Positions 6,625 to 57,274 are shown, counted from the stretch's first letter. The stretch: 64,000 bases of DNA from Propionicimonas sp. (GCA_049841235.1 JASGEM010000030.1:23452-87451); one strand, 5' to 3'. Program-made: numbers and translations. The notes: a model not told the origin generated them from the sequence alone.

Positions 6625-6889
6625 GCCGACTCCTCTCGTCTCGGATACCGGCCGGGCTCGCCGCAGCAGTCTGCAGCCGCCCTGCTGCGCCACCCTAGCG
6701 GTGGCGGTTGGCTCCGTGGCGGTGGCTCAATTGCCTCCGCCGGGGAAGCCCCGATTCTCGCCCACTGTCGTCCTGCGTCTCTTGGCCGTCGCGTCCCCTG
6801 CCTCTCCTGGCGTCCCGGTGCAGGCCGGGGTCGTTCTGCCCGGGATGCCGGCCGGCGACGGAATGACAAGCATCGGTCGCGATGACCCT

Positions 6890-6908
6890 TTCCCGATAGT
6901 TTCGGGAA
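6890..6908. promoter_or_regulatory. Candidate LacI-family operator (palindrome TTCCCGATA-G-TTTCGGGAA)
   Basis: Near-perfect palindrome centred on G6899, 13 nt upstream of the LacI start at 6921. It shares the core CGA(A/T)AGTTTCG with the site at 15486-15498. Confidence 0.45.
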
Positions 6909-6920
6909 TATGCTGCCGTT

Positions 6921-41263: not shown

Positions 41264-42100
41264 ATGACCCGCTCCCGTCCGTTCGCCCAGGTGGATGTGT
41301 TCTCCCGCGAGCCCTACCGAGGGAATCCGGTCGCCGTGATCCTCGACGCCGAGGGCATGGACGACGAGGCGATGCAGCGGATCGCGCGCTGGACGAACCT
41401 CTCCGAGACCACCTTCGTCCTGCCGGCCACCGCCCCGGAGGCCGACTACCGGCTGCGCATCTTCACCCCAGCCGGTGAGCTGCCGTTCGCGGGGCACCCC
41501 ACCCTCGGCTCGGCTGCTGCGTGGCTCGACAATGGGGGCCGGCCGCGCGCCGAGGGTCGGATCGTGCAGGAGTGCGGAGTAGGGCTGGTCGAGTTGCGTC
41601 AGGACGGCGGACTCGCCTTCGCCGCGCCGCCACTGCTGCGCACCGGTCCGCTCGACGAGGACTACCTGGCGCGGATCATCACCGCTTGGGGGATCGCCGC
41701 GGAGCAGGTGATCGGGCACCAGTGGGTGGACAACGGTCCGGGCTGGGCGGTGATCCGGCTCGCGACCGCCGCCGAGGTGCTGGCGCTCGATCCCGACCTG
41801 TCACTCATCCCGGACGCCATGGTCGGAGCCGTCGGCGCCTACCCGGAGGGCTCGCGCCATGGGTTCGAGTTGCGTGCCTTCGCCCCGGCCGTGAACGTGC
41901 CGGAGGATCCGGTCACCGGGAGCCTGAACGCCTCGGTGGCCCAATGGCTGGCCAGCGCCGGCCAGGCTCCCGACCGCTACACCGTCTCCCAGGGAACCCG
42001 GCTCGGCCGCGCCGGTGAGATCACGATCACCGTCGAGAACGACATCGTGTGGGTCGGTGGCGCCACCACTGTCTGTTTCCGCGGCCTGGCTGTCGTCTGA
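41264..42100 (+). CDS. PhzF family isomerase
   Basis: Reads FAQVDVFSREPYRGNPVAVILDAEGMDDEAMQRIARWTNLSETTFVLP and later FAGHPTLGSA. Confidence 0.9.
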   Translation: MTRSRPFAQVDVFSREPYRGNPVAVILDAEGMDDEAMQRIARWTNLSETTFVLPATAPEADYRLRIFTPAGELPFAGHPTLGSAAAWLDNGGRPRAEGRIVQECGVGLVELRQDGGLAFAAPPLLRTGPLDEDYLARIITAWGIAAEQVIGHQWVDNGPGWAVIRLATAAEVLALDPDLSLIPDAMVGAVGAYPEGSRHGFELRAFAPAVNVPEDPVTGSLNASVAQWLASAGQAPDRYTVSQGTRLGRAGEITITVENDIVWVGGATTVCFRGLAVV

Positions 42101-42315
42101 TCCCGTCCGGTCAGGCGGGGGTGATGCTCGGCCTTTGCGCGGTGTTCCTCCCGCCTGAGGACCATACTGTCGCGACACTCGAACTCGAGGAGACGCTGGT
42201 GGCCGTGGCGTGGACGCCAGGTCCACATCGCCCGGGCCCGCCACATCGACGCGCCCCCCCGCGATTGGTGGTCCGCGGTGTTGGCGATCTCATCGCGGCC
42301 GAGCCGGCTTTCCGG

Positions 42316-42699
42316 CTAGCTACTCTGCTGCATCCTCACCGTGGTGGTCGTGCCCATGACGGTGAACTCGAAAGAGAGTTCTCCATTGGAATATGCGAAC
42401 TCCTTGTCGTCTGCTGTCGACCCTAGGAGGGAGCCGTTCAGAGCTTCCTTATCGGCGACGGACGTGAATGTGGGTGACTGAGAATGATCGAAGGTTCCCT
42501 TCCAGTAGAGCATCTTCGCTCCGTCGGAAACGATTTCGACCACGATCTCGTCTGTGGAAATGTCCGCTTCGAACTGGGACGGCGTGTCGCCGACGCTCGT
42601 CCAGGTTCCCGTCATGTCGACGGGTTCGGCTACGGGCGCGCTGCATCCCATCAGGACCAGCAGCGGGAGCGCCAGGGCGGCGAGCATCTTCTTGAACAT
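42316..42699 (-). CDS. Small lipoprotein, unknown function (low-GC islet)
   Basis: Lipobox in MFKKMLAALALPLLVLMGC. 127 aa. Hand-counted GC is 48-60% per 60 nt across 42361-42540. Confidence 0.6.
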   Translation of the reverse strand: MFKKMLAALALPLLVLMGCSAPVAEPVDMTGTWTSVGDTPSQFEADISTDEIVVEIVSDGAKMLYWKGTFDHSQSPTFTSVADKEALNGSLLGSTADDKEFAYSNGELSFEFTVMGTTTTVRMQQSS

Positions 42700-42781
42700 G
42701 GGTGGACCTTTCTAGGCAAGGTTGGTCGAAACTGGTGGTTGTCGGATTTGCTTTCGCCGAAGTGCTTCTTGATCGACTTCT

Positions 42782-43141
42782 CTACTCGTATCGAATCGAC
42801 CCGACGGGTGGCGGTAGTCCGTCCTGCCACACCCGCGCAAAGACGTCGGCGACCAGGGGCCAGATGCGTCGGACGCCCTCATCGACGGAGTGGATGAGAG
42901 GGGCCGCTGATCCGAGGAGGACGAAGTCGTGAGGGATCGTGCGGCCAGCCACGTCCTTCCGGTCCAGAGGATCGGGGAACCGCAGCGCCAGGCGTCCGCC
43001 GGTGAGCCTGCAGACCGTGTCCCGGTCCTCCAGACCGGCGAACGCCTGCTCGTAGCTTGCCAGCGGGTCGGCCAAGCCTCCGTCGAGAAGGAAACGGAAC
43101 CCCCAGGAACGGCCGCGTGTCGCCCAGATCAGGTTCACCAT
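42782..43141 (-). CDS. 119-aa protein of unknown function, translationally coupled to the GTPase-like gene
   Basis: Its ATG at 43141 overlaps the upstream stop by 7 nt (ATGGTGA). It reads MVNLIWATRGRSWGFRFLLDGGLADPLASYEQAF. No motif recognised. Confidence 0.6.
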   Translation of the reverse strand: MVNLIWATRGRSWGFRFLLDGGLADPLASYEQAFAGLEDRDTVCRLTGGRLALRFPDPLDRKDVAGRTIPHDFVLLGSAAPLIHSVDEGVRRIWPLVADVFARVWQDGLPPPVGSIRYE

Positions 43142-44304
43142 GGGTTCTTGACGAGGAGATGGTTCGCCACACCCTCATCGAGGTCGAGCCGGAGCTTGGT
43201 GAGGATGGCCGTGAGGTAGTCCTTGTCTTGCAGCGCCTGCTGGTGAATCTCCGCCAGCTTCGACCTTCCGAGCTGGACGAGCTCCGCCAGTGCCGGCATC
43301 GCCAGCGGACCGAGGATGCGTCCGACCTTCGGTACCTTGACAAGCAATTTCGTGGTCGCTTTCGCACCTACGCCCGTCAGCACCGTCGCCAGCACTTCCG
43401 CGTGGTCGACCAGTCCGCCCAGCACCTTGAGCGGGATGTTGAACGTGTCGGCCCATTGCGCGACTCGCTCCAACGGGAGCATGGAGGCCACCGGCAGGAT
43501 GAGGTCGACGCCCACTCGCTCGCTGACCGTGATCCTGTCGGGCTCGAACTTCGCCGAGGACAGGAGGAGGAAGTCTTCACCGAGCGAGAGTGCCTCGGGC
43601 ACCTGGACGAACCCCTTGAGCGTCTCCTGCAGTGCTGCGACATCGCCGGCTGCCTTCTCCACCACGAGATCCTGAAACCCCTGGACGTCAAGACCGGGGT
43701 GCAGATCGGCTTTGGAGAGCGCCAGAACCCAGATGCGCGGGAACTCGGCAAGGGGCTCGCCGTCAGTCAGGATGTCGTCCTTGAGCCGCTCCAGCCCGTC
43801 CCCGATGCTACTGAGCAGGTACTTGAGGTACTTCTCCTCCTCGCCTACGTGATCGATCAGCTTCTGACCGTCGATCAGGATGAGGGCGACGTCGGACTTC
43901 ATCAGTTTCGTGAAGGTCGCGACCCGCCGCGCGGCTTCCTGCTCGCTGCTGGGATCCTCCTCGAACCACTCACCCGGGTAGTCATGCCAGACCAGCCGCA
44001 GCGCGCTGAACGGCTGCCCCTTGACGCTCTTGGTGCCGTCCCCGCTGTTCGGCTTCACAGTGAAGGCATAGCTGGTCGGCTTGAACGTGGTGGGTCGGGG
44101 AGCCTGTGACGCGTTCTTCATCCTGAGGTAGTTCTGGTGCAGCCGGTTGCCCTGCCCCGTATCTGCGGCAATCAGGCTATACAGACTCTTGCTGCGGAAG
44201 GAGGGCTCCCGGGTGGCGCCGTAGAAGGACGAGAGGAGTACGGTCTTGCCGCTGCCGCTGGCACCGAACACAGCCAGGTTCTGTTCTCTCACCTTCATGG
44301 CCAT
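43135..44304 (-). CDS. Septin-like (TRAFAC-class) P-loop GTPase-like protein with a novel helical C-terminal half
   Basis: Motif positions are in 392-aa ORF numbering: Walker A GASGSGKT (aa 17-24), VWHDYPGE (DxxG, aa 111-114) and LALSKAD (septin-type xKxD G4, aa 200-203). The start is probably ATG 44304, after AGGTGG; alternatives are GTG 44313 and ATG 44298. Confidence 0.75.
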   Translation of the reverse strand: MAMKVREQNLAVFGASGSGKTVLLSSFYGATREPSFRSKSLYSLIAADTGQGNRLHQNYLRMKNASQAPRPTTFKPTSYAFTVKPNSGDGTKSVKGQPFSALRLVWHDYPGEWFEEDPSSEQEAARRVATFTKLMKSDVALILIDGQKLIDHVGEEEKYLKYLLSSIGDGLERLKDDILTDGEPLAEFPRIWVLALSKADLHPGLDVQGFQDLVVEKAAGDVAALQETLKGFVQVPEALSLGEDFLLLSSAKFEPDRITVSERVGVDLILPVASMLPLERVAQWADTFNIPLKVLGGLVDHAEVLATVLTGVGAKATTKLLVKVPKVGRILGPLAMPALAELVQLGRSKLAEIHQQALQDKDYLTAILTKLRLDLDEGVANHLLVKNPW

Positions 44305-44435
44305 GCGCGCCACCTGAGCTTTCGTACCGTCCGGCTCATATCGGTCTTCCTTCTTTGTCGACGCGTCGGTGCGGCATTTGAGGTTGGAACGTGAGGAAAC
44401 GGAGGAGATGGTCTCCGCCAGCCCCCGAATGGCGA

Positions 44436-44470
44436 ATGTGACTCATAGTCCGTGGACTCATTGTCAGCAT
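44436..44470. promoter_or_regulatory. Double C-box operator of a restriction-modification-type controller protein
   Basis: The sequence is ATGT GACTCATAGTC CGTG GACTCATTGTC AGCAT. Box 1 (44440-44450) is a perfect GACT-N3-AGTC palindrome. Box 2 (44455-44465) matches 3 of 4 arm positions. The spacer is the 4-bp CGTG. The site ends 18 nt before the C-gene ATG. Confidence 0.65.
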
Positions 44471-44487
44471 AGCGGAACGGTGGGGTC

Positions 44488-44742
44488 ATGCCCCTCCCGT
44501 CGCCGCGCATCGCCTTTGGTACGCGGCTACGCGAACTGCGCAGGGGAAAGGGCTGGTCGCAGGAAGAGCTTGCCCATCGCGCCGATCTCGACCGAACCTA
44601 CGTCAGCGGCGTCGAGCGAGGAGTCAGGAATCCGACCCTCGACGTGATCACGAGATTCGCCACCACCCTCAACGTCGAGGTCGCGGATCTCTTCCCGCGC
44701 GCCGACGGTGGATCAGAAGGCCCCGCCAACCCTTCCCGGTGA
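44488..44742 (+). CDS. XRE-family HTH protein of the R-M controller (C-protein) type
   Basis: 84 aa. FGTRLRELRRGKGWSQEELAHRADLDRTYVSGVERGVRNPTLDVITRFATTL carries the LDRTY(I/V)SG(I/V)ER..RNPT signature I associate with C proteins. It lies directly behind the C-box pair. Confidence 0.8.
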   Translation: MPLPSPRIAFGTRLRELRRGKGWSQEELAHRADLDRTYVSGVERGVRNPTLDVITRFATTLNVEVADLFPRADGGSEGPANPSR

Positions 44743-44764
44743 CCTGATGGAGACCTGCGGGAGG

Positions 44765-47092
44765 TCAGCGCGGCAGTAGGTCAAGGACTGCGGCGGCGAT
44801 CGAATCGGCGTCGATCTCGTGGTACCGGTAGACGCTGGCGAGGTCGCCGGACTGGCCGAAGCGGGTGACCCCAAGGTGCGTGCTCGGCACCCGCTGGACG
44901 CCCGCGAGGAATGACAGCGCGTGCGGGTGCCCGTCCAGGACGGTGACCAGCGGAGCCTTGCGCTCCTCGGGCAGCAGGGTGCGCAGCACCCACTCCCCGT
45001 CGGGTCGGACCTCTTCGACCCGACGATGCCGCGCCTGCAGTGCGGAGAAGAGCAGCCCGGGGCTGGTGATGCACAGCACCTCCACTTCAGCGCCGAGGCT
45101 GGTGAGCTGGTCAGCTGCCGCGAGGGCCTCCGGCACTACCGCACCCATCGCGGCGATCACCGCGTCCGGTCGCTCCACCGGACGCAGCCGGTAGCCGCCG
45201 GCGACCGCCTGCCGCCTGCGCAGTTCGCGTGCTTCGGGAGCCGTGGGGAGATCCGCGAGCAGCTGGTCGACCGGCCGGGTGGACAACCGCAGATAGCTGG
45301 ACGTGCCTGAGGCACGCCCCAGGCCGCGGATGCACTCCAGCAGTACCCACTCGGTGTCGACCACGAAGGCCGGTTCGTAGGCGATCACGCCGGGCTGCTC
45401 GAGGCCGATCGACGGCGTGACGATCGACTGGTGCGCGCCGCCCTCGGGCGCGAGACTGACCCCCGAGGGCGTGCCCACGAGGATGGACTGTCCGCCGGCA
45501 TAGACCCCGAACGACCATGGTTCCAGCGCCCGTCCCACGAACGGGTCGTAGACGACGCCGATCGGTATCAGCGCCTCGCCCCACCGGCTCCAGGTGGCGC
45601 CGAGTTCGCCGAGCAGGCCGACCAGGTTGGTTTCGGCGATCCCGAGCTCGATGTGTTGGCCGGAGGGACGTTCCCGCCAGTGAAGGATCGTCTCGGGATC
45701 GTCCTCGAACCAGCCGGAACGCTCGGTCGGCGCCCATACCCCGACCTTGTTGACCCAGCCACCGAGGTTCGTGCTCGAGCTCACGTCGGGGCTGACCGTG
45801 ACGACCCGCCCGCCGATCTCGGGCGCCGACCGGGCAAGATCCAGCAGGACGCGGCCCAGTGCGCTCTGGGTGGTCGCCCGGCCACGCGGGGACCAGCCGA
45901 AGTCGCTCGGCGGAGAGAAGCCCGCAGCGGCCCGGGTCTCCGGTCGGGAGAGCCGCTGGGCGGTCTCGCGGCAGAGCTTCTCCTCCGCGCTGTCCTTCGG
46001 GAAGCCGGCGAAGGGCCGGTCGCGATCGACGCCGAGCCGGCCGGCGAGGTCCTCGAGTTGCTCGGGGGTCAACAGTGCCGAATGGTTCTGGGGATGTCCT
46101 TCGCTGGCGAGTTGGTGACCCTTCACCGTGTAGGCGACGATCACGGTCGGACGGGTGTCGTCGATCTGATCGAAGGCGTCCAGGAGCGTCGCCGGATCGT
46201 GACCGCCGAGATCGCGCAACGCCGACCACAGCTGGTCGTCGCCGACCGGGGCGATCACCTCGCGCAATCCGGGGTGCGCCGGGTCCGCGAGGCGACTGCG
46301 CAGTTCCTCCGGGCGGCAGCGCAGGAGTCGTTGGTACTCCGGATTGCCCATCTGCTCGATCCGGTCCCGCAGCGCTTCGCCTCCGGGAAGGGCGAACAGG
46401 GAGCGCAGCTCGCTGCCGTACTTGGCCTGGATGACCTGCCAGCCGGCGGCTTCGAACATCTGCTGAACCCGTGCCGCGCTGCCCGAGGCAAGGACGCGGT
46501 CGAGCGACTGCCGGTTGAGATCCACGATCCAGACGACTTCGCCGAGTTCGCGGACGAGCGGGTCGCTCACGGCCTCCCAGACCGCGCCCTCATCGAGCTC
46601 GGCGTCTCCGACGAGGGAGTACTGGCGACCTCGGCCGGGAGTGCCACCGTGGTCGGCGACGAAGCGCCGCGCCAGGGTGCCCCACAGGGGCGCGGTCGCC
46701 CCGATCCCGACCGATCCGGTCGAGTAGTCCACCACCCCCCGGTCCTTGGTCCGGCTGGGGTAGCTCTGCAGCCCTCCGAAGGATCGCAGCGTGGTCAGGT
46801 CCGCCTCCTCGAGTTGCCCGAGCAGGTAGTTGATGGCGTGCAGCACCGGGGAGGCGTGCGGCTTGACCGACACCCGGTCCTCCGGCTCGAGCCGGTCGAA
46901 CCACAGGCAGGTCATGATCGTGGTCATCGAGGCGCTCGACGCCTGATGGCCACCGACCTTGAGCCCGCTCGGGTCTCGGCGGACCCGATTGGCGTGGTCG
47001 ACCATGGCGGTCGCGAGCCAGAGCACCCGTCGTTCGACGGATCGCAGCAGGCTCTCGCGATCGGTGAGCACATCGGTGGCCGGAAGGCTCAT
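44765..47092 (-). CDS. AceE-like homodimeric 2-oxoacid dehydrogenase E1 / transketolase-superfamily TPP enzyme
   Basis: 775 aa. TPP motif LVGDAELDEGAVWEA..VVWIVDLNRQSLD. The N-terminal KVGGHQASSASMTTIM resembles AceE GGHIAS. The ATG overlaps the upstream stop (ATGA). Confidence 0.8.
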   Translation of the reverse strand: MSLPATDVLTDRESLLRSVERRVLWLATAMVDHANRVRRDPSGLKVGGHQASSASMTTIMTCLWFDRLEPEDRVSVKPHASPVLHAINYLLGQLEEADLTTLRSFGGLQSYPSRTKDRGVVDYSTGSVGIGATAPLWGTLARRFVADHGGTPGRGRQYSLVGDAELDEGAVWEAVSDPLVRELGEVVWIVDLNRQSLDRVLASGSAARVQQMFEAAGWQVIQAKYGSELRSLFALPGGEALRDRIEQMGNPEYQRLLRCRPEELRSRLADPAHPGLREVIAPVGDDQLWSALRDLGGHDPATLLDAFDQIDDTRPTVIVAYTVKGHQLASEGHPQNHSALLTPEQLEDLAGRLGVDRDRPFAGFPKDSAEEKLCRETAQRLSRPETRAAAGFSPPSDFGWSPRGRATTQSALGRVLLDLARSAPEIGGRVVTVSPDVSSSTNLGGWVNKVGVWAPTERSGWFEDDPETILHWRERPSGQHIELGIAETNLVGLLGELGATWSRWGEALIPIGVVYDPFVGRALEPWSFGVYAGGQSILVGTPSGVSLAPEGGAHQSIVTPSIGLEQPGVIAYEPAFVVDTEWVLLECIRGLGRASGTSSYLRLSTRPVDQLLADLPTAPEARELRRRQAVAGGYRLRPVERPDAVIAAMGAVVPEALAAADQLTSLGAEVEVLCITSPGLLFSALQARHRRVEEVRPDGEWVLRTLLPEERKAPLVTVLDGHPHALSFLAGVQRVPSTHLGVTRFGQSGDLASVYRYHEIDADSIAAAVLDLLPR

Positions 47093-49098
47093 GGTGTCCT
47101 CCTTGGACGCTCGGGCGTGGGCGGGCGAGTGCCACCGGAACGGCTGGACGTGAGCCGGGCCAGCACCGACTCGAGTGCGGCACAGCAGCCCGCCGGGTGG
47201 TCGGCGAGCTCGGCCGGACGCGATTCCAGGAGGCGGATCAGATCGGGGACATCGGCGATCTCGAGCAACCCGTGCCGGTAGGCCATCGGGGTGGTCTCGC
47301 GTGGGCTGGGCACGAGAAGGTCTTCGAGGCTCCGCAGTCCCTCGACGACCACCCCGGCCACCCGGTCGTCGAGCGTTGCCGCCAGCAGGGCCACCAGACC
47401 GAAGGCGCCGGCCCCGGCCAGGATGATGCTCCCCTTGTCGAGTTGCTGGGCCGACGAGTACCGGGCCGAGAGATAGTCCACCAGCCGGCCCACGTCCCCG
47501 ACCCGCTGGCTCAGCAGGTCGCGGTCGAGCATCCAGGCCGCGGTCGCGATCTCGAACTCGGAGGCGTCGGACTCGCCGGTTCCCCGCAGGTCAGGTAGCA
47601 GCACGGCCCACCCGCGTTCACGTGCCAGCGCGGTGGCGGGCAGGTCCAGCGCCGCCTGCTTTCCGCCCTCGTCCAGGATGACGACGATCGGAGCGAGCGC
47701 GTCCGTCCAGTTCTCCGGCAGCAGCAGGAGCGCGTCGAGCACGATCCCCGGCTCGGAGTCGAATTCGAGGTGCTGCGCGAAGCCACCCTCGATCGGGAGA
47801 TGCCGGCGCACCCGGACGGGTGGTGGCCGGTCCTGCGGATCCAGTCCGAGGAAGGCGCGAAGCGACCCTGCGTCCGCGGGGGGCCGGGTCGTCCGCAGGG
47901 CGGCCGCTCGTTGCCGGGCAAGCTCGACCAGGGGCAGGTTGGCGTCCACCGGGCTGGGCAGGCAGGTGCCGGACGAGGGGCGGGGGGACATGTCCTGGGG
48001 CCGGCGTGCCGAGCCCAGGTTGTGCGGGTTCGGCCATTGCGGGTCGAAGTCCGGCCTCCCGTCGGGAAGGGTGGTCGCCGCGTGACCGGCGAGTTGGCGG
48101 ACGAGGTGGCCGGCGACGACCTCGCGCATCGCGGCGGAGGCGAAGCCGTGCCCGCCGGGAACCTCGACGTAGGCGAAAGAGAGGTCCTGCTCGCCGAGGA
48201 GCTCCCGGACCTCCGTGGCGACCTCGCGGGCACCGGCCAGGGGGAACGGCGGATCGTCGGTCGCATTGGCCACCAGGAGCTGCCGTGGGGCGACACAGGC
48301 CAGGATCTCGCCCATCGTGCCGATCGCGCAGAGCCGGGGAACCTGGTTGCACAGGTCGACCCAGCCGTCCCAACCGGTTCCGAACGCGGCGTCGCCGAGC
48401 TGGCCGAGGTGGGTGTTCACGATCGACGAGATCGCTGCGACCCCGATCCGTGGGTCGAGCACGGCGGCGAAGATCGAGGAGAACCCGCCGCCGGAGGCCC
48501 CCACCACCCCGAGACGGGAGGGGTCGACCTCGGGCAGGCCCTCCAGAATGCCGAGCGCCGTCCGGGTCTCGGCGACCATCAGGCCGAGAGTGGTGAACCC
48601 GGTCAGCACCGGCGCCAGTTGTCCGTGCTGGTGCCAGCCGACCCTCCGCTCACCCTGGCCCACCGTGTCGTAGCAGAGCACGGCGATGCCGTCGCGGACC
48701 AGGCGGAGATTCATGAGCTGCAGCGGCGCGGCGAGCTTGCCGTCCTCCATCCAGTGCCCGGGCGGGTGCACCACCGCCGGGTGCGGGCCGGCGCCGTCCG
48801 GAAGATACAGCAGCGCCGGGACCGGGAGCCCCGGTGCGGTCTCGAAGACGAGCTTCCGAATCCGGTAGCCCGGGCCCTCCACCTCATCGAGCCAGGTGCG
48901 TGCCTCGGCCGACGGGATGCGGTCGGTACCGAGCGAGCGGATGAGTGCCTCCCGGATCCGTTCCGGCTCGGGCAATTCGCCCCGCGCCCGAGCCTCGCGC
49001 TGCCGCCGGGCCAGCAGGCTGGCCTGATCGAGGACGAAGTCCGGCAGCATCGACCCGCGCGCGGGTGGCCGGAGCAACTGCTCGAGACGCCTCACCAC
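47089..49098 (-). CDS. Tandem alpha/beta-hydrolase-fold protein (N-terminal esterase-like half with GASGG elbow; C-terminal half lacks a Ser)
   Basis: The GTG at 49098 is preceded by GAGGGAGAA; an alternative ATG is at 49050. Half 1 reads PAVVHPPGHW..VGASGGGFSSIF. Half 2 reads PIVVILDEGG..LLPDLRGTGES..IILAGAGAFGLVA. The Arg/Pro-rich 137 codons upstream in the tracked ORF were rejected. Confidence 0.65.
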   Translation of the reverse strand: MVRRLEQLLRPPARGSMLPDFVLDQASLLARRQREARARGELPEPERIREALIRSLGTDRIPSAEARTWLDEVEGPGYRIRKLVFETAPGLPVPALLYLPDGAGPHPAVVHPPGHWMEDGKLAAPLQLMNLRLVRDGIAVLCYDTVGQGERRVGWHQHGQLAPVLTGFTTLGLMVAETRTALGILEGLPEVDPSRLGVVGASGGGFSSIFAAVLDPRIGVAAISSIVNTHLGQLGDAAFGTGWDGWVDLCNQVPRLCAIGTMGEILACVAPRQLLVANATDDPPFPLAGAREVATEVRELLGEQDLSFAYVEVPGGHGFASAAMREVVAGHLVRQLAGHAATTLPDGRPDFDPQWPNPHNLGSARRPQDMSPRPSSGTCLPSPVDANLPLVELARQRAAALRTTRPPADAGSLRAFLGLDPQDRPPPVRVRRHLPIEGGFAQHLEFDSEPGIVLDALLLLPENWTDALAPIVVILDEGGKQAALDLPATALARERGWAVLLPDLRGTGESDASEFEIATAAWMLDRDLLSQRVGDVGRLVDYLSARYSSAQQLDKGSIILAGAGAFGLVALLAATLDDRVAGVVVEGLRSLEDLLVPSPRETTPMAYRHGLLEIADVPDLIRLLESRPAELADHPAGCCAALESVLARLTSSRSGGTRPPTPERPRRTP

Positions 49099-49132
49099 GG
49101 CTTTCTCCCTCGCGCGAACGTAACCGGTGTCC

Positions 49133-49942
49133 TCATGTGCCGCCGTCCACCCAGTCGGCGAGCAGGCCGGCGAACTCCGGCGCCCGCTCGATCTGCGCCC
49201 AGTGCCCAACATCCTCCCAGACGACCGAACGGCTGTGCGGATCGCCGTACAATCTCCGCTCCCAGTCGGCCCCGGCGGGCGTCGTGTGCACCGCGAGCAC
49301 CGGTTGCACCCGTCGCACCAGATAGGCCTCCGCACCCGCTCGGCTGCAGATCTCGTCGGGTGCCTCGAACAGGCCGGCGAGGCAGGCCTCGAGCACCGCC
49401 GGATCGCAGCCCAGCGCCCGCCGGGCAAGCCACTCGACCAACCACTCGGGGGTGGTGGGGCCGGCCCAGGACCGGACCGCCTCCGCCGCCGCGACCGGGC
49501 CGCGGGCACGGACGGCCCTCAGCAGTTCGAGCCGTTCGGGCCATTCCTGCTCCGAGACGCCGTACGAGGGGTCGACCACGACCACCGCTGAGACGAGTTC
49601 GGGACGCTCTACCGCCAGCGCGGAGACGACGACGGCGCCCAGCGAGTGGCCGACGGCGACGACCCCGGTGAGGCCGAGCCCGTCGAGCAGAACGGCAAGA
49701 TCCCCCGCGAGCTCGCGCGGGGCGTAGCCGGCAGGAGTCGCCGTGGAGTGGCCGAAACCGCGCAGATCGGGAACGATCAGACGGCGCCCCGAGAGCGCCG
49801 GCATCTGCCACGACCAGTCGCTGCCGTCCGCGGACCAGCCGTGGACCAGCAGCATCGCCGGCTCGCCCGATCCCCGTTCGGTGACGAAAAGGCTCGCGTC
49901 CCCCACGTCCATCCGGCTGATCCGGTCAACCACGGCGCTCAC
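49133..49942 (-). CDS. Alpha/beta hydrolase
   Basis: Reads PAMLLVHGWSADGSDWSWQMPAL..VPDLRGFGHS..AVGHSLGAVV (GHSLG elbow). The GTG at 49942 overlaps the permease stop (GTGA); an alternative ATG is at 49912. Confidence 0.8.
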   Translation of the reverse strand: MSAVVDRISRMDVGDASLFVTERGSGEPAMLLVHGWSADGSDWSWQMPALSGRRLIVPDLRGFGHSTATPAGYAPRELAGDLAVLLDGLGLTGVVAVGHSLGAVVVSALAVERPELVSAVVVVDPSYGVSEQEWPERLELLRAVRARGPVAAAEAVRSWAGPTTPEWLVEWLARRALGCDPAVLEACLAGLFEAPDEICSRAGAEAYLVRRVQPVLAVHTTPAGADWERRLYGDPHSRSVVWEDVGHWAQIERAPEFAGLLADWVDGGT

Positions 49943-50769
49943 TTGCCGATCCCCGCAGTGAGACCCCGGACGAAGAAGCGCTGGCCGAAGATGTAGAGCA
50001 GCACGATGGGGACGACCGAGATGAACGCGCCCGCCATGACCAGCGGCTGCTGGGCCAGGTAGCGCCCCTGGAAGGTGGCGAGGCCGGCCATGAGCGTGCG
50101 GGCATCCCCCTGCTGCAGGAAGACCAACGCGATCAGCAGCTCGTTCCAGGCATAGATCAGGTTGACCAGGACCAGCGTGAACAACGCCGGTCCGGAGAGC
50201 GGGGTGACGATCCGGGTGAGGGTGCTGAGCGGGCCGAGGCCGTCCATCTTCGCCGCCTCGATCAGTTCCATGGGGACGCTCCGCAGGAAGCTGGTGAGGA
50301 AGAACACCGAGAACGGCAGGAACAGCCCGACGTAGATGACGATCACCGAAGGCAGGCGATTGATCAGCCCGATGTCCACCATGAGGACGAACAGCGGGGT
50401 CAGCAGGGTGACCGGCGGCACCACCATGAGCGCGAGGTTCCCGTTGGCGAACAGTGAGCGGCCGGGGAACCGCGCGAAGACCACCGCGTAGCTGGCCAGC
50501 AGGGCGATCGCTGTCGTCGCGATCGAGGCCGCAACGGAAACCACAATGCTGTTCAGCAGCCAGGTCAGCACCGGCATGGACTCGATGAGCTGGACGAAGC
50601 TCTGCACCGTCGGCGGCACCGGCAGGCCGAGCGGATCCTGCTGGTATTGCGGGTCGGTCTTCAAAGAGGTCTGGACGATGAACCAGATCGGGTACAGACA
50701 GACCAGGCATACCGCGACGAGGAAGGCATGCTTGACGACCGAGCCGGCGCGCGGACCGCGGCTGTTCAC
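49939..50769 (-). CDS. Carbohydrate ABC transporter permease
   Basis: EAA loop PMELIEAAKMDGLGPLSTLTRIVTP. The GTG at 50769 overlaps the upstream stop (GTGA). Confidence 0.85.
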   Translation of the reverse strand: MNSRGPRAGSVVKHAFLVAVCLVCLYPIWFIVQTSLKTDPQYQQDPLGLPVPPTVQSFVQLIESMPVLTWLLNSIVVSVAASIATTAIALLASYAVVFARFPGRSLFANGNLALMVVPPVTLLTPLFVLMVDIGLINRLPSVIVIYVGLFLPFSVFFLTSFLRSVPMELIEAAKMDGLGPLSTLTRIVTPLSGPALFTLVLVNLIYAWNELLIALVFLQQGDARTLMAGLATFQGRYLAQQPLVMAGAFISVVPIVLLYIFGQRFFVRGLTAGIGK

Positions 50770-51659
50770 GACTCCCCCTGGGCGCGGCGCAGCCGTGAGT
50801 AGATGACGATGAGCACGCCGGAGAGGGTGAGCAGCACGACCGCGGCCGCCGAACTCAGCCCTGGCGAGTTGTACTCGAAGGCGTAGCGCCACACGTACAG
50901 ATCCATCACGCTCGATGCGGTGCCCGGGCCGCCGCGAGAGATGACGTAGACGTAGGGAAAGGTCCACGCCAGCACCTGGATCGCCTGAAGCACGAGGAAG
51001 AACTCGATGGTGCCCCGGATCGCCGGGACGAGGACCAGACGGTTGCGTTGCCAGCGCGTCGCACCGTCCACCATCGCTGCCTCGCTCAGCTCGGCAGGGA
51101 CCGCGTCGAGCGCGGCGGCGAAGATGACCACCCCGAAGCCGAGCTGGGCCCAGACGAGCACACCACCGATGGTGGGCAGGACCCACGCCGGGTCTCCGAG
51201 CCAGTCCATGGCGAGAGCATCGAGACCCACTCCACGCAACAGCGAGTTCACGATGCCTCGCTGCTGTAGCAGGAAGGAGAAGCTGAGCCCGATCGCGGTT
51301 GCCGGAATCAGGTAGGGCAGGAACACCAGGATGCGGTACAGCCGCCAGCCACGAGTGCCCTCGTAGAGCAGGAGTGCGACGACCAGCGCGACCGTCGTCG
51401 TCACCGGCACCGCGAGCAGCAGCTTCAGGCTGTTGGTCAGCGAGGTGACGAAGACCGGGTCGGCCAGCAGCGCCTCGAAGTTGCGCAGCCCACCGAACTG
51501 CATGCGACCCATCGAGCCGGTGTAGAGGCTGTTGCGGATCACGGAAACCAGCGGGAACACGAACACCAACCCGAGGACGGCCACCGCCGGGAGGATGAAG
51601 AGAAACGGCCAGACCCCGCCGTCACGCGGCGGGGTCACGCCGGCTACCCCTCGGCCCAC
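50766..51659 (-). CDS. Carbohydrate ABC transporter permease
   Basis: EAA loop PAELSEAAMVDGATRWQRNRLVLVP. The start is at 51659, or at GTG 51638, 6 nt after the SBP stop. Confidence 0.85.
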   Translation of the reverse strand: MGRGVAGVTPPRDGGVWPFLFILPAVAVLGLVFVFPLVSVIRNSLYTGSMGRMQFGGLRNFEALLADPVFVTSLTNSLKLLLAVPVTTTVALVVALLLYEGTRGWRLYRILVFLPYLIPATAIGLSFSFLLQQRGIVNSLLRGVGLDALAMDWLGDPAWVLPTIGGVLVWAQLGFGVVIFAAALDAVPAELSEAAMVDGATRWQRNRLVLVPAIRGTIEFFLVLQAIQVLAWTFPYVYVISRGGPGTASSVMDLYVWRYAFEYNSPGLSSAAAVVLLTLSGVLIVIYSRLRRAQGES

Positions 51660-53026
51660 GTCAGATAGGCCTCGAACTCCGCGGGCTGCTGGGTCTGCCA
51701 GGCCTCGATGACCCGCTGAATCTCAGCGGCCGCCTCGTCGGGCGTGAGGGAGCCGGCGATCAGTGCCTGCCCGACGGACCGTAGCCCCTGGGAATCCACC
51801 TGAGGCGGTGCGTAGTTCTGGGCCCAAAGCTGTAGCGGCAGGGTGTTGAGCTCGTAGAGGTCGCGCTTGAGCCCGTCCTCGACGAGGCTGGAGTCGAACC
51901 GCTTGTCCGCCGGGAAGGAGCCGGTCGTCTCGTACCAGCTGACCAGGTTCTCGGGGTCGTGAAGCCAGGCGAGGAAGGTGGCGGCCTGCACCTTCTGCTC
52001 CGACCACGATGTCACGAAGGCGGAGATCGACTGGGTCGCGGTGTAGGCCTGGGCGAGCGCGCCGTCCCCTGCGGTGGGCGTCTTCTGGACACCGAGGGAG
52101 CTGCCCAGACCCGAGTTCATCCACTCGACCACGTTGCCGTCCGTCGCCCACGTCATCGCAGCCTGACCCTGGGCGAACTGCTGCCAGCCTTCGAGAGCGT
52201 CGATGGAGGAGATGTCACTGTTGAGGTAGCCCTTCTCCACGAGTTCTGCGAGCAGTTCCAGGTAGCGCGAGTACTTGGGTTCGGTGAACTGGGCCTTGCC
52301 GGAGTAGACGGCCTGCAGTTCCTGGACGGAATCCAGCGTCTGCGTGCCGACCATGCCCTGGAACCAGCCTCCGAAGGCACCGTCCTTGGCACCGAAGACG
52401 ATCGGGGTGATCCCGGCCGCTTTGAGCTTCTCCGACGCCGCCAGCAGCTCGTCCCAGGTCTGGGGGCCTTGGTCGGTGGGCAGGCCGGCTTGAGCGAACA
52501 GGTCCTTGTTCCAGACGAAGGGTGCGCCGAGAAGGTACAGCGGCATGGCCCAGACCTTGCCGTCGTAGGTGTTCTCGGCGGTGTTGAGCCAGTTGGCCAT
52601 CTCCGCTTCGGGGACGAGCCCGGTGAGCGGCTCGACATAGCCCCGCCACACCGGGGTGAGCACGGGCAGAGTGGCCCATTGCATCGCGATGTCAGGGCCG
52701 GAGCGGGATTGTCCCGCGGTCTCGAAGGCCCCCTGGAGCGTCTCGCTCGCCTGCGGCACCAACTCGATCGAAATGTCCGGATGCAGCTGCTCGTATCGGG
52801 TGATCGCCTCCTCCATCCACGCGGTTGCACCCGGGACGTCAGGTTCCGCCCAGAACCAGAAAGTCAACGTGCCGGCGTACGCTTCGTCCGTTGTCGGGCC
52901 GGCCGACGGCTGTCCCCCCGGTGTGGTTGCCGAGGGTGCCGTCGATCCCGAACAGGCCGCCGCGGTGAGCAGGAGTGCCATCCCCCCGACTCCGGCGAGC
53001 AGCTTCCTCAGAGTGCGAGCTTTCAT
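51644..53026 (-). CDS. ABC transporter sugar-binding lipoprotein
   Basis: Begins MKARTLRKLLAGVGGMALLLTAAAC (lipobox). The ATG at 53026 is preceded by GAGGAGAA. Confidence 0.9.
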   Translation of the reverse strand: MKARTLRKLLAGVGGMALLLTAAACSGSTAPSATTPGGQPSAGPTTDEAYAGTLTFWFWAEPDVPGATAWMEEAITRYEQLHPDISIELVPQASETLQGAFETAGQSRSGPDIAMQWATLPVLTPVWRGYVEPLTGLVPEAEMANWLNTAENTYDGKVWAMPLYLLGAPFVWNKDLFAQAGLPTDQGPQTWDELLAASEKLKAAGITPIVFGAKDGAFGGWFQGMVGTQTLDSVQELQAVYSGKAQFTEPKYSRYLELLAELVEKGYLNSDISSIDALEGWQQFAQGQAAMTWATDGNVVEWMNSGLGSSLGVQKTPTAGDGALAQAYTATQSISAFVTSWSEQKVQAATFLAWLHDPENLVSWYETTGSFPADKRFDSSLVEDGLKRDLYELNTLPLQLWAQNYAPPQVDSQGLRSVGQALIAGSLTPDEAAAEIQRVIEAWQTQQPAEFEAYLTWAEG

Positions 53027-53133
53027 CCGTGTTCTCCTCGATCTCTTGTCTGCGGGCCGGGCCCGGACGCCTCGGAACCGGGCAGTGGACGTCGTTGACA
53101 CTATCCGACGGGTGGACACCATGGCAAGATGCA

Positions 53134-53150
53134 TGCAGCAATATACTGCA
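53134..53150. promoter_or_regulatory. Candidate LacI operator (TGCAGCA-type)
   Basis: TGCAGCAATATACTGCA, with a further CTGCA at 53155-53159. It lies in the divergent region between the SBP gene and lacI. Confidence 0.35.
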
Positions 53151-53271
53151 AGAACTGCAACATGTGCCTGGCTATTCACGAGTGTCCGTGGATGGAGCAG
53201 GCCGTCGCGAGAATCCGGGAGCGGCTCGCTGCGATATCGTGGCGCTGCCGCAAGAACGCTCTGGAGGCAAT

Positions 53272-54279
53272 GTGAAGGTCACTCTGTCCGACGTCGCCCG
53301 TCACCTGAGGATCTCGCCGTCGACCGTCTCCCGCGCGATCTCCGCACCTGACCGGGTGAATGCCACCACCAGGGAGCGGGTGCTCGCAGCGGTCGCGGAA
53401 CTGGGCTATGTCCATCCGGGCGCGCCGCGGCCGTCCGGACGGGCCTCGCACATGATCGGGCTCATCGTCCCCGACATCGTCAATCCCTTCTTCCCGCCGA
53501 TCATCAAAGCGGTGCAGGCTCGTGCCGCGGCGCGGGGATGGACGGTGCTGATCGCCGACATCGACGAACACCCTGCCGACGAACTGCGGCGTGCCAAGCA
53601 ACTGCTGGATCAGGTGGACGGCCTGATCGTGGTGAGCGCCCGCACGCCTCCCGACCAGTTCCACAAGCTGGTGGCAATGCAGCCGATCGTCCTGGTCAAC
53701 CGGGAATGGGACGGGGTCGCCAGCGTGAACATCGAGAACGGCGCCGGCATCGAGGACGCGGTGGAGCACCTCGTCGCGTTGGGTCACCGACACCTGTGCT
53801 ACCTGAACGGCCCGCGGCGGTCCTGGTCGAATCAGCAGCGGCAGAGAGCGGTCCGGGAGGCGTGTGAGCGTGCCGGTGTCGACCTGGTGGAGTTCGGGCC
53901 CTTCGAGCCGCAGATCCAGGCCGGCATGCGCGCGGCAGACCTGCTGTGCGCATCTGGGGCGACAGCGGTGATCGCCTACGACGACCTGCTCGCCCTGGGT
54001 GTGATGACCCGCCTCAACGAGCGTGGCATTCAGGTGGGGTCCGGGATCAGCGTGATCGGCATCGACGACAGCCCGATGTCGGGCATGGTGCATCCCTCCC
54101 TGACCTCCATCCAGATTCCCGGTAGCGAGGCCGGGATGACCGCGGTGGATGCGCTGCTCGACCTGGTGGCCGCCCAGAGCGAAGGCCGGGACCTGCAACC
54201 GTTGCTGGTGAGCTCGCTGCTCGAGACCCGACTGGTGGTGCGCACCTCGACCGCGCCGCCCCCGGCCGAGCGCCTTTAG
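53272..54279 (+). CDS. LacI family transcriptional regulator
   Basis: The GTG at 53272 follows GGAGG. HTH VTLSDVARHLRISPSTVSRAISAPDRV. PBP-type sugar-binding core. Confidence 0.9.
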   Translation: MKVTLSDVARHLRISPSTVSRAISAPDRVNATTRERVLAAVAELGYVHPGAPRPSGRASHMIGLIVPDIVNPFFPPIIKAVQARAAARGWTVLIADIDEHPADELRRAKQLLDQVDGLIVVSARTPPDQFHKLVAMQPIVLVNREWDGVASVNIENGAGIEDAVEHLVALGHRHLCYLNGPRRSWSNQQRQRAVREACERAGVDLVEFGPFEPQIQAGMRAADLLCASGATAVIAYDDLLALGVMTRLNERGIQVGSGISVIGIDDSPMSGMVHPSLTSIQIPGSEAGMTAVDALLDLVAAQSEGRDLQPLLVSSLLETRLVVRTSTAPPPAERL

Positions 54280-54289
54280 CGACGCCTCG

Positions 54290-54315
54290 GCAGCAAGTGT
54301 GCTGCATGTGCAGCA
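54290..54315. promoter_or_regulatory. Candidate LacI operator (overlapping palindromes GCAGCA-AGTG-TGCTGCA-TG-TGCAGCA)
   Basis: Two overlapping inverted repeats are built from the same TGCAGCA/TGCTGCA heptamer seen at 53134. They lie upstream of the nagB-like gene. A further 7-2-7 palindrome GAGTGAC-TC-GTCACTC is at 54339-54354. Confidence 0.4.
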
Positions 54316-54420
54316 AAGGCATGTTAGGGTGAGCGCAAGAGTGACTCGTCACTCAGCAGACCGGCGTAGGTCCCGCGACCCCGCGGCCGCGGTGACGGCA
54401 CCCAACCAGGAGAAGCTCCT

Positions 54421-55182
54421 ATGCATGCAACCCGCAGCCAGGATCTCGAGATCACGATCCTCGACAGCAACGCAGAACTGGGCCGGCGGGCGGCGGCGGA
54501 GTTCGCCTCGATCGTCCGCGGTGAACTGGCGGAGCGTCGCGAGATCGCCGTCATCCTGGCTACCGGTAACTCCCAGTTCAGCTTCACCGAGGCCCTTCGC
54601 GACCGGACTGACATCGAGTGGGGCCGGATCACGGTGCTCCACATGGACGAGTACCTCGGCATGGACGCCGGGCATCCGGCGAGCTTCCGTCGCTGGATGC
54701 AGGAACGGGTGGTCGAACCCTTCCGCCCAGCGCGGTTCGAGGGCATCGACGGCGACGCCGATTCCGTCGAGGCGGAGCTCCGGCGCTACAGCACCCTGCT
54801 CCGGGAACTGGAGCCGGCGATCTGCGTCATGGGCATCGGTGAGAACGGACATCTGGCGTTCAACGATCCGCCTGCCGACTTCGACACTCCGGAGCTGATT
54901 CGAGTGGTGGAGATGGACGAGATCTCCCGCCGGCAACAGGTCGGCGAGGGCCACTTCCCGTCCCTGGCCGAGACGCCGACCCACGCTCTCACCCTAACCA
55001 TCCCGGCGCTGCTCGCCCCGCGTCACGTCCTGGTGCTGACTCCTGAAGCCAGGAAGGCCGAGGCAGTCAGGCGGGCGCTCCAGGGAGAGATCGGCGCCGA
55101 CTGCCCGGCGTCCATCCTGCGCACCCAGCCGCAGGCCAAGCTCTTCCTGGATCGGGAGTCCGCCGCCCTGCTTGACCACTGA
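54421..55182 (+). CDS. nagB: Glucosamine-6-phosphate deaminase / 6-phosphogluconolactonase family protein
   Basis: Reads ILATGNSQFSF..VLHMDEYLG..VMGIGENGHLAFNDP. The ATG is preceded by AGGAGAAG. Confidence 0.8.
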   Translation: MHATRSQDLEITILDSNAELGRRAAAEFASIVRGELAERREIAVILATGNSQFSFTEALRDRTDIEWGRITVLHMDEYLGMDAGHPASFRRWMQERVVEPFRPARFEGIDGDADSVEAELRRYSTLLRELEPAICVMGIGENGHLAFNDPPADFDTPELIRVVEMDEISRRQQVGEGHFPSLAETPTHALTLTIPALLAPRHVLVLTPEARKAEAVRRALQGEIGADCPASILRTQPQAKLFLDRESAALLDH

Positions 55183-55189
55183 GCCTGGA

Positions 55190-57103
55190 TCAGGCTCGGA
55201 GTGCCGACGCGTCCGAGGGGGCGGTGACCGGCGGAGTGAAGGCACCCTCGATCGAACGGGCGGCACCCTTGTCGGCGGACAGCGCCAGCGCGGCATAGAT
55301 CTTCAGCGCCTGGGAGACCTCGCGCTGCCGGGTCCTCGGCTTCCAGCCGAGCTGGTTCTGCCGCAGCCGCCGCTCCTCCAGGGTGGCTTCGTCCACCAGG
55401 ACGTCGATCGACCGGTTCGGGATGGAGATCTGGATCAGGTCGCCGTCCTCGATCAGGCCGATCGCGCCGCCGGAGGCAGCCTCCGGCGAGATGTGGCCCA
55501 GCGACAGCCCCGACGAGCCGCCGGAGAACCGTCCGTCGGTGATCAGCGCGCACTTCGGCCCGAGGCCGGTGCCCTTCAGGTAGGAGGTCGGGTACAGCAT
55601 CTCCTGCATGCCCGGCCCGCCCTTGGGGCCCTCGTAGCGCACCACCACGACGTCACCGGCCCGCACCTTCTTGCTCAGGACGGCCTCGACGGCCTCCTCC
55701 TGCGACTCGGTGACGATGGCCGGACCGGTGAAGTCCCACTGCGCCTCGGGGACGCCGGCGGTCTTCACGATCGCGCCGTCAGGGGCGATGTTGCCCTTCA
55801 GGACGGCCAGCCCGCCGTCAGCGGTGTAGGCGTGCTCGACCGAGCGAATGCAGCCGTGCTCGGCGTCGGTGTCCAGATCGGCCCAGCGGTTGTTGGTGCT
55901 GAACGCCTCGGTGGTGCGGACGCCGCCGGGCGCGGCGTACCACAGGTCCATCGCCTCGGGAGATGCCTTGCCGCCGCGCAGGTCCCAGGCGTCCAGCCAT
56001 TCGGCCAGCGAAGGGGAGTGGACGGCGTGCACCGACTCGTCCAGCAGGCCGCCGCGGCGGAGTTCGCCGAGGATCGCGGGCATCCCGCCGGCCCGATGCA
56101 CATCCTCCATGTAGAACTTGGTCGAGTTCGGCGCCACCTTGCTCAGGCAGGGGGTCACCCGCGACAGGGCGTCGATGTCGTCCAGGGTGAAGTCGACGCC
56201 GGCCTCGACGGCGGCGGCCAGGATGTGCAGCACGGTGTTGGTCGAGCCGCCCATCGCGATGTCCAGCCGCATGGCGTTGCTGAACGCCGCCTTGGTGGCG
56301 ATCGAGCGCGGCAGCACCGACTCGTCGTCGCCGTGGTAGTACCGGTTGGCCAACTCGACTGCCAACCGTCCCGCCTCCAGGAACAGGCCCTTGCGCGCCA
56401 GCGCGGTCGCCAGCGTCGAGCCGTTGCCGGGCAGCGAAAGCCCGAGCGCTTCGGTGAGGCAGTTCATCGAGTTGGCGGTGAACATGCCCGAACAGGAGCC
56501 ACAGGTCGGGCAGGCGTTCTGCTCGATCGCCGCGATCTGCTCGTCCGTGACCGACTCGTCGACCGCCTTCACCATGGCGTCGACCAGGTCGAGCCGCTCC
56601 GAGCCGCCCTCGTCGGGCGCGCCGGAGACCACCCGGGTGCCGAGGATCCGTCCGGCCTCCATCGGGCCGCCGGAGACGAAGACGGTGGGGATGTTCAGCC
56701 GCAGCGCGGCCAGCAGCATGCCGGGGGTGATCTTGTCGCAGTTCGAGATGCAGACCAGCGCATCCGCGCAGTGCGCGTTGACCATGTACTCCACCGAGTC
56801 GGCGATGATCTCGCGGCTGGGCAGCGAGTAGAGCATGCCGGCGTGTCCCATCGCGATGCCGTCGTCGACCGCGATGGTGTTGAACTCGCGGCCGATCGCG
56901 CCGGCCTCGTGGATGGCGCCGGCGACCAGCTGGCCCATGTCCTTGAGGTGGACGTGGCCGGGCACGAACTGGGTGAAGGAGTTCGCGATCGCGATGATCG
57001 GCTTGCCGAAATCGGAGTCGGTCACGCCGGTGGCACGCCAGAGCGCACGGGCTCCGGCCATGTTGCGGCCGTGGGTGGTGGTCCGGGATCGCAGGACGGG
57101 CAT
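55190..57103 (-). CDS. ilvD: Dihydroxy-acid dehydratase
   Basis: Reads [76 protein letters not shown]. The ATG at 57103 is preceded by AAGGAGAA. Confidence 0.95.
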
Positions 57104-57274
57104 CGTCGTTTCTCCTTCGCGAATGCCAAGACACCCAGGGTACTTCCCATCGCCTCCGGAGCCGGGCGAGGGCCGAGCAGCGGCCAGACCGGCCTCGCCC
57201 GAGGCGTCCGCCCGCCGCGGATCGAGCCGGGGTTCGGCGTTGTCGGCCCGGGGTCGGGTGGGTATCGTCCCGGC

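Follow-up and report, generated by a model that had tools for sequence, protein, structure and literature searches.

When a controller (C) protein of the restriction-modification (R-M) type lies back to back with a GTPase gene pair, we need to ask whether the regulator governs its neighbours or only adjoins them. The question is raised by the window, by which we mean the whole stretch of DNA analysed, 64 kb of one strand from Propionicimonas sp. (GCA_049841235.1 JASGEM010000030.1:23452-87451). Here an 84-amino-acid (aa) XRE helix-turn-helix (HTH) protein is encoded on the plus strand at 44488-44742, behind a double operator at 44440-44465, and is divergent from a minus-strand operon that carries the gene of a P-loop GTPase (43135-44304) followed by that of a 119-aa partner protein (42782-43141). 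An earlier note on this DNA proposed that the delayed switch of R-M systems had been recruited here to a toxic or abortive GTPase module. We think it somewhat more probable than not that two independent things lie side by side, an orphan C regulator resident at this site and a separate, mobile GTPase module of a conflict or toxin-like kind. What is new at this locus is not the coupling to a C protein but the pair itself, a minimal relative of the predicted DO-GTPase systems that has a partner of its own.

The distribution of the genes is the principal observation. A scan of one genome per GTDB species (185,579 species) returned 237 relatives confirmed by tblastn, and the best 80 of these were examined, all of them from Actinomycetota. 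The partner gene is immediately downstream of the GTPase gene at 79 of the 80 loci, and so the linkage of these two genes, which the earlier note had supposed, amounts to an obligate pair. The same note's supposition that the pair is also linked to a C protein did not hold: a homologue of the 84-aa HTH protein accompanies the pair at 2 of the 80 loci, which belong to the two closest relatives (L001 and L002), and the relative at 74% identity (the P0004 group) and all more distant ones are without it. The HTH-bearing L001 and L002, the window itself and L081, a C-box-bearing syntenic relative that came from a separate look-up outside the 80 GTDB loci, share one ilvD-linked site, and this does not support a C switch recruited to the pair by design. 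When the two genes nearest to the pair on either side were scanned with Pfam and the 25 most frequent families listed per set, HTH_3 was present in 2 of 144 upstream neighbours, and none of the neighbours was conserved. By a profile search the GTPase family comprises 410 clusters at 50% identity among 1.84 billion representatives, and sequence conservation of the pair is high, at 50-80% identity across orders. The pair is a small, unnamed, accessory two-gene module of Actinomycetota, separate from the C protein. Two apparent Rosetta-stone fusions of GTPase and partner were discarded, P0364 being a frameshift artefact and P0033 having an over-extended N-terminus.

The HTH gene has a home of its own. 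Its closest homologues (71-86% identical) are found in Propionicimonas, Micropruina and metagenome-assembled genomes of Propionibacteriaceae, where they adjoin ilvD or ilvBNC and have neither R-M genes nor the GTPase as neighbours. Across the loci compared, ilvD adjoins the HTH gene in L001, L087 and L089, and ilvBNC does so in L091-L093; ilvD of the window (55193-57172, minus strand) marks the same conserved neighbourhood, being 10 kb from the HTH gene and 90.6% identical to the IlvD of L001 by tblastn. The GTPase-less loci have the same C-box, which usually faces a divergent lipoprotein gene of 166-201 codons that is homologous across loci (its homologues stand opposite the HTH gene in L087, L089 and L091). 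The most likely reading of these comparisons is that the HTH is a resident chromosomal gene whose usual divergent neighbour is a lipoprotein gene. Because the HTH-bearing loci all share one ilvD-linked site, and because HTH and C-box are kept there without the GTPase, the adjacency of C gene and pair is, as far as the compared loci indicate, inherited at a single site and not repeatedly selected. On the simplest reading, the pair would have been inserted once, next to the HTH and lipoprotein genes of an ancestral strain of this lineage in which the orphan C gene was already resident, and would since have descended vertically, with local rearrangement. The interval between HTH gene and ilvD is a variable hotspot. 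It spans ~10 kb in the window (44765-55192) and holds an E1-like gene, a gene for an 806-aa esterase-like protein and parts of an ABC transporter; in L089 (5396-6531) it holds a PhdYeFM/PIN toxin-antitoxin (TA) pair and a GNAT gene, and in L001 and L087 nothing separates the HTH gene from ilvD.

On sequence evidence the regulator is a genuine R-M controller of the C.AhdI/PvuII type, as the earlier note had recognised, and has no R-M cargo. It matches the Control_protein models of PADLOC (E 5e-19) and Pfam HTH_3 (E 3e-15); among solved structures it is most closely related to C.AhdI (1y7y, E 4e-15) and then to C.BclI and C.Esp1396I, all of them characterised proteins of the PDB. The operator consists of a left box, OL, GACTCATAGTC at 44440-50, a CGTG spacer and a right box, OR, GACTCATTGTC at 44455-65. 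It fits the consensus GACT-N3-AGTC-N4-GACT-N3-AGTC given by Mruk et al. (PMC2175313) at 15 of the 16 symmetric positions, and the double-box pattern occurs once in the 64-kb window against 0.01 expected. Mruk et al. (PMC2175313) also found that, where the spacer is CGTG, the recognition helix reads DR(T/S)Y. The window has this spacer and a helix of the DRTY type (DLDRTYVSGVE), and protein and operator therefore fit each other. Between the end of the operator and the HTH ATG there are 22 nt, a distance near, and not equal to, the 17-18 nt usual for leaderless C genes (PMC2632904), and a sigma-70 promoter scan returned no sites and hence no consensus promoter for the HTH gene. In all likelihood the C protein regulates its own, probably near-leaderless promoter through OL and OR. 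The C-box is nearly invariant in L001 and L002 although the remaining spacer diverges, and it also precedes the HTH gene in the GTPase-less L087 and L089-L093. In L087 (~4960-4990) the second box is cut short, GACTCATAGTCCGTTGACTCATAGCGGAAC, as though by a deletion of OR, which would predict that autorepression is lost there.

The likeness to C.AhdI and C.PvuII thus extends to the size and fold of the protein, to an operator placed directly before its own start codon and to the pairing of spacer and helix. The differences, besides the distance of 22 nt, are that no restriction or methylase gene is near and that nothing is co-transcribed downstream, where the next gene is convergent; no R-M domains were found at 36-53 kb of the window. 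The window HTH is instead conserved as a gene of the chromosome, close to ilvD, within a lineage of Propionibacteriales. Orphan C homologues were described as a class in 2009 by Sorokin et al. (PMC2632904), who asked whether C proteins outside R-M systems control other toxic genes.

The first alternative to be weighed answers that question in the affirmative: the orphan C switch would have been co-opted in this lineage to gate a toxic GTPase operon, whose divergent promoter would be repressed or activated by C protein on OL/OR and which would then be expressed with a delay and above a threshold. We consider this unlikely, and part of the evidence that bears on it lies between the two divergent genes. 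A 14-codon upstream open reading frame (uORF) encoding MSRTVRKLRWRAWP occupies 44295-44339 on the minus strand; it has its own Shine-Dalgarno (SD) sequence, GAAGGAAG at 44346-44353, and its stop overlaps codon 3 of the GTPase gene (ATGGCCATGA). An SD sequence followed by a uORF of 14-16 codons that ends in the first GTPase codons is found in the window, L001, L002 and L081 (845-895), and the uORF is presumably translated. Most members of the family are leaderless, with TANNNT 6-7 nt before the GTPase ATG, and others have uORFs of 12-18 codons that are themselves leaderless and stop beside the GTPase ATG (L006, L011, L013, L016, L083). The window subclade has lost the TANNNT-ATG promoter in exchange for the longer SD-uORF leader, so transcription must start nearer to the C-box, and the C-boxes are ~100 bp from the start of the uORF and 43 bp from the junction of an indel that distinguishes the window from L081. 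Sorokin et al. had raised this very possibility, the knock-out alleles described below suggest that the GTPase is costly, and in Serratia fonticola a C-like HTH gene lies directly upstream of a BstA_C-domain gene.

Against co-option, the association does not extend beyond a single inherited site, where HTH and C-box are also conserved without the pair, and the C gene is co-transcribed with no cargo. The GTPase of L081 is 89% identical to that of the window, and its partner, lipoprotein and PhzF genes are syntenic with those of the window; the L081 contig ends before the HTH gene. By blastn the two differ by a clean 686-bp indel at 44396/44397 of the window. The corresponding segment of L081 (101-786) encodes a 180-aa lipoprotein (MNRRIATWAV..LTAC) whose gene is missing from the window, so that the order in L081 is C-box, lipoprotein gene and then GTPase leader, and a whole gene separates the C-box from the GTPase. 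The absence of this gene would explain why the operon of the window now starts ~100 bp from the C-boxes. A regulon search of the window, the surroundings of the operon included, turned up neither an additional C-box nor a half-site. The C protein may regulate the GTPase operon, but the impression of a switch built for this cargo is mostly explained by inherited adjacency, and our preferred reading of two independent neighbours keeps its place. Just before the indel junction, and 23 nt from the C-box, there is a perfect 5-3-5 palindrome (GGAGA-TGG-TCTCC, 44404-44416), which is kept in L081 as GGAGA-TTG-TCTCC and not in L001 or L002; it is possibly a second operator. The leader RNA of the GTPase gene shows no excess structure (z +1.27). 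More distant homologues of the window HTH are found upstream of other cargo, and that of Serratia fonticola (L095, 5001-6173) is an example: it is 63% identical to the window protein and is encoded in a resolvase-bearing element, co-oriented with the gene for the 302-aa BstA_C-domain protein, and may exemplify a C-type regulator whose cargo serves defence and is not of the R-M kind.

What, then, is the pair? The GTPase has 389 aa from its ATG, or 392 aa from an alternative GTG start at 44313. Its motifs (G1 GASGSGKT, G3 DYPG, G4 SKAD and G5 SAK) bear out the septin-type character seen by the earlier note, and all four are invariant in the family. A G domain (~1-240) is followed by a helical C-terminal domain (~265-389); there is no transmembrane helix (maximum hydropathy 1.42) and no Cys-rich N-terminus, G1 beginning at residue 14. 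The protein passes the threshold of Pfam PF19993, DO-GTPase2, by a weak and partial match (E 9.6e-9, 35.7 bits against a cut-off of 27, residues 13-181), and nearly all of its homologues carry the same precomputed match. Its AlphaFold2 model is of low confidence (predicted local distance difference test, pLDDT, 59.8), and with this model Foldseek found nothing more specific than large GTPases of a generic kind (Sey1p, atlastin, GBP, septin, YcjX; E ~1e-4, TM-scores 0.26-0.39). In PADLOC-DB 2.0 the GTPase has a P-loop match alone (mad3, E 0.005).

The gene of the partner overlaps that of the GTPase by 7 nt. The protein has an alpha/beta fold, well modelled by AlphaFold2 (pLDDT 84), with the invariant motifs WATRG..WGFRFLL and RFPDPxxRxDxAGRxIPH. 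It matches no Pfam (E up to 0.1), NCBIfam or PADLOC model, and Foldseek against the PDB gave no significant fold match; its weak, non-significant PDB matches lean to longin/roadblock GTPase-regulator domains with a probability of at most 0.38, and can serve only as a lead. Sequence searches of both proteins against PDB chains returned nothing meaningful. With no named defence system matched in PADLOC or NCBIfam, the earlier note's failure to place the pair among such systems is borne out. In the mechanism that we propose, the large GTPase would be a costly effector or switch, and the translationally coupled 119-aa protein would be its regulator.

The nearest described relatives are the DO-GTPases, defined as the switch of predicted conflict systems by Kaur, Burroughs, Iyer and Aravind (2020, eLife). 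The window GTPase is likewise a TRAFAC GTPase within PF19993, with an acidic residue or Gln after G3 (DYPGE/Q); its family is mainly from Actinomycetota, and in both cases the role in conflict is predicted and not proven. According to Kaur et al. (2020), GAP1 is always present in those systems, usually together with zinc ribbons, FNIII proteins and variable effectors. The window differs in the weakness and partial extent of the PF19993 match and in having no GAP1, GASH, FNIII, zinc ribbon, transmembrane segment, second paralogous GTPase or variable effector; it has instead a fixed 119-aa partner without a Pfam family. Nor is GAP1 among the 25 most frequent neighbour families per set, and the neighbours are mutually unrelated. 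Among the best 150 clusters retrieved by the family profile, lengths reach ~515 aa. Dynamin-, GBP-, atlastin- and septin-like GTPases, which include bacterial dynamin-like proteins of defence, share the sequence of G domain and helical C-terminal domain, and the septin G4, AKAD, resembles the xKxD of the window (SKAD). They differ in that the structural match is poor, both in TM-score and in the confidence of the query model, and in having no sequence relationship to the window GTPase among solved structures.

The behaviour of the module within genera suggests that it moves. It can be aligned in nearly every within-genus pair of species and its flanks seldom can: flanks are shared by 6 of 78 species pairs in Kribbella, 1 of 15 in Rhodococcus, 1 of 10 in Nocardioides, and none of 15 in either the Cellulomonas-like or the Tessaracoccus/Brooklawnia set. 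GC content of the module is under that of its flanks at 73 of 76 loci, by 4.3 points on average. The immediate neighbours include GmrSD/type IV enzymes (4-5 loci), DpdE, DrmD, JetC and UzuA, as well as TrwC (relaxases), transposases and TA genes; a FitA-like ribbon-helix-helix (RHH) gene of the TA kind adjoins the module in L001. There are also signs of cost. Three contigs (L101, L102 and L103) are at least 98.5% identical to the window over 42701-44800, and in each the GTPase gene is inactivated and the partner intact. L101 (1835-3007) and L103 (1149-2318) have S240* (TCG to TAG at codon 240), and L102 (~162-1333) has a +1 frameshift near codon 131. Two independent inactivations in near-identical strains suggest that the GTPase is costly. 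Mobility, low GC, neighbours, multiple copies, knock-outs and expression control all fit a costly and tightly dosed accessory gene.

Domains like the partner are also encoded by phages. Foldseek against BFVD matched the partner to gp8 of Arthrobacter phage Nightmare (E 2.3e-7, TM-score 0.72, 40% identity), tblastn confirmed the domain in gp8 of the Gordonviruses Nightmare and Tokki, and phrog_38171, the family to which gp8 belongs, matches the partner at E 5.5e-14. In three IMG/VR contigs (L104-L106) the encoded protein has the architecture of gp8, a DUF7211 N-terminus followed by a transmembrane helix and then by a partner-like domain that contains RFPDPxGRKDxAGRxIPH. The C-terminal domain of gp8 is 33-44% identical to the partner and keeps ATRG and the latter motif; the differences are its DUF7211 N-terminus and transmembrane helix, its place between terminase and portal, and the constant absence of the GTPase, which neither a bona fide phage nor an IMG/VR contig was found to encode. 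One record labelled 'Bacteriophage sp.', MT835574, in which the pair is present, is not counted as a phage, being UNVERIFIED, unannotated and of 72% GC over the 15.6 kb fetched. In Nightmare (L098, 4734-6771), Tokki (L100) and the IMG/VR contigs L104-L106, gp8, gp9 and gp10 are consecutive between terminase and portal; each starts with a 25-residue DUF7211 motif (HYGVKGMKWG) and then diverges, and together they resemble a cassette in which the N-terminal handle is shared and the C-terminal domains vary. Recent capture of gp8 from Micrococcaceae hosts was considered and rejected, since gp8 is equally distant from all partners.

Several of these observations weigh against a resident regulator standing beside an unrelated mobile conflict module. 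The C-box is within ~100 bp of the operon leader, and so the C protein may really regulate the operon. Geodermatophilaceae show synteny of the module in 10 of 10 pairs, so that it is stably inherited there, and many neighbours of the module are ordinary housekeeping genes; the defence or mobile setting about which the earlier note had asked is seen for some copies. The GTPase knock-out alleles come from metagenome assemblies. The sole locus without a partner (L017, 5929-8152) has an intact 410-aa GTPase followed by a transposase-like open reading frame of 236 aa, and since the intact GTPase is kept there without its partner, this argues against a strict toxin-antitoxin dependence. Finally, the partner-like domain of gp8 follows a positively charged N-terminus and a transmembrane helix and may face outward (N-in/C-out), in which case it would never meet a cytoplasmic GTPase.

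In a second alternative the pair would be a cellular GTPase switch and its regulator with no part in conflict, comparable to MglA and MglB or to Rag with its longin/roadblock regulators, serving the membrane or envelope and found in variable regions by chance. The dynamin-, atlastin-, GBP- and septin-like fold matches with their helical stalks, the enrichment of longin/roadblock domains among the partner's non-significant matches, the conservation across orders, the synteny in Geodermatophilaceae and the lipoprotein genes nearby in this lineage are all in keeping with it. However, a family confined to 237 stretches among the species scanned and to its 410 clusters is rare and patchy for such a role, its position changes within genera and its GC is consistently under that of the flanks, the GTPase is knocked out in near-identical strains, and some copies have defence or mobile neighbours. 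Some genomes moreover hold two copies: Kocuria cellulosilytica has two modules within 6 kb (L065, 36-1552 on the minus and 6001-7496 on the plus strand), and Kitasatospora arboriphila has two in separate loci (L045 and L079). We hold this explanation to be a shade less probable than co-option of the C switch, and a mobile conflict module beside a resident regulator remains the reading that we prefer.

Slightly more doubtful again is the fullest form of the defence hypothesis, in which the pair would be a new minimal family of abortive-infection or toxin-like defence in Actinomycetota, the partner would restrain a costly large GTPase, the partner-domain proteins of actinophages (DUF7211, transmembrane helix and partner domain) would interfere with it, and the module would stand under the C-protein switch in this lineage. 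A phage partner domain without a GTPase could be a counter-defence mimic, and the topology of gp8 makes such mimicry uncertain. That the pair is a selfish addiction module with a GTPase toxin and a 119-aa antitoxin and no role in defence is very improbable: the genes do form a two-gene operon and overlap or are closely spaced, the GTPase is inactivated where the partner is retained, and the module is mobile, adjoins the FitA-like RHH gene in L001 and has a PhdYeFM/PIN pair at the same hotspot in the pair-less L089, but a large first gene, a small second one and a partner without a DNA-binding domain are atypical of type II TA systems, L017 has the GTPase without its partner, and no plasmid or integrative-element context was seen at most loci.

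Should the pair prove to serve defence or act as a toxin module, it would add a compact two-gene GTPase system to the poorly explored defence repertoire of Actinomycetota, and the phage-borne partner domain would be a candidate counter-defence. If it were in addition under the C switch, it would be a natural example of what was asked in 2009 about C proteins outside R-M systems gating toxic genes. The distant tie is to computationally predicted DO-GTPase systems, for which no tests were found in the literature searched; on this GTPase family in defence, the 2020 prediction paper was the sole find. The locus is in any event a clean natural case of an orphan C.AhdI-type controller as a conserved chromosomal gene, and as such may be useful for the study of non-R-M roles.

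The remaining features agree with the earlier note's description of a low-GC islet between housekeeping-type genes. No methyltransferase, nuclease, integrase, tRNA or meaningful flanking direct repeat was found in or around the islet, nor any match to an Rfam family at the islet; with these hallmarks of an integrative element absent, the sole signals are lower GC and variable position. On one side is a PhzC-PhzF (PhzF-like) gene at 41264-42100 on the plus strand (E 8e-60), and on the other a gene for a 775-aa transketolase/pyruvate dehydrogenase E1-like protein at 44765-47092 on the minus strand, convergent with the HTH gene. GC content is 0.58-0.65 at ~42200-44600 against 0.69-0.74 (~0.71) in the flanks, and this drop is modest, because GC at third codon positions stays high (0.76-0.84 in the four genes of the islet, 0.83-0.88 in their neighbours). 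The fourth gene, which the earlier note had placed after the pair, encodes a 127-aa lipoprotein (42316-42699, minus strand) with a signal peptide and an LMGC lipobox Cys. It was considered as a member of the module and rejected: it occurs in the syntenic relatives L081, L102 and L103 only, apart from one 31% match in L011, and is a local passenger of this lineage.

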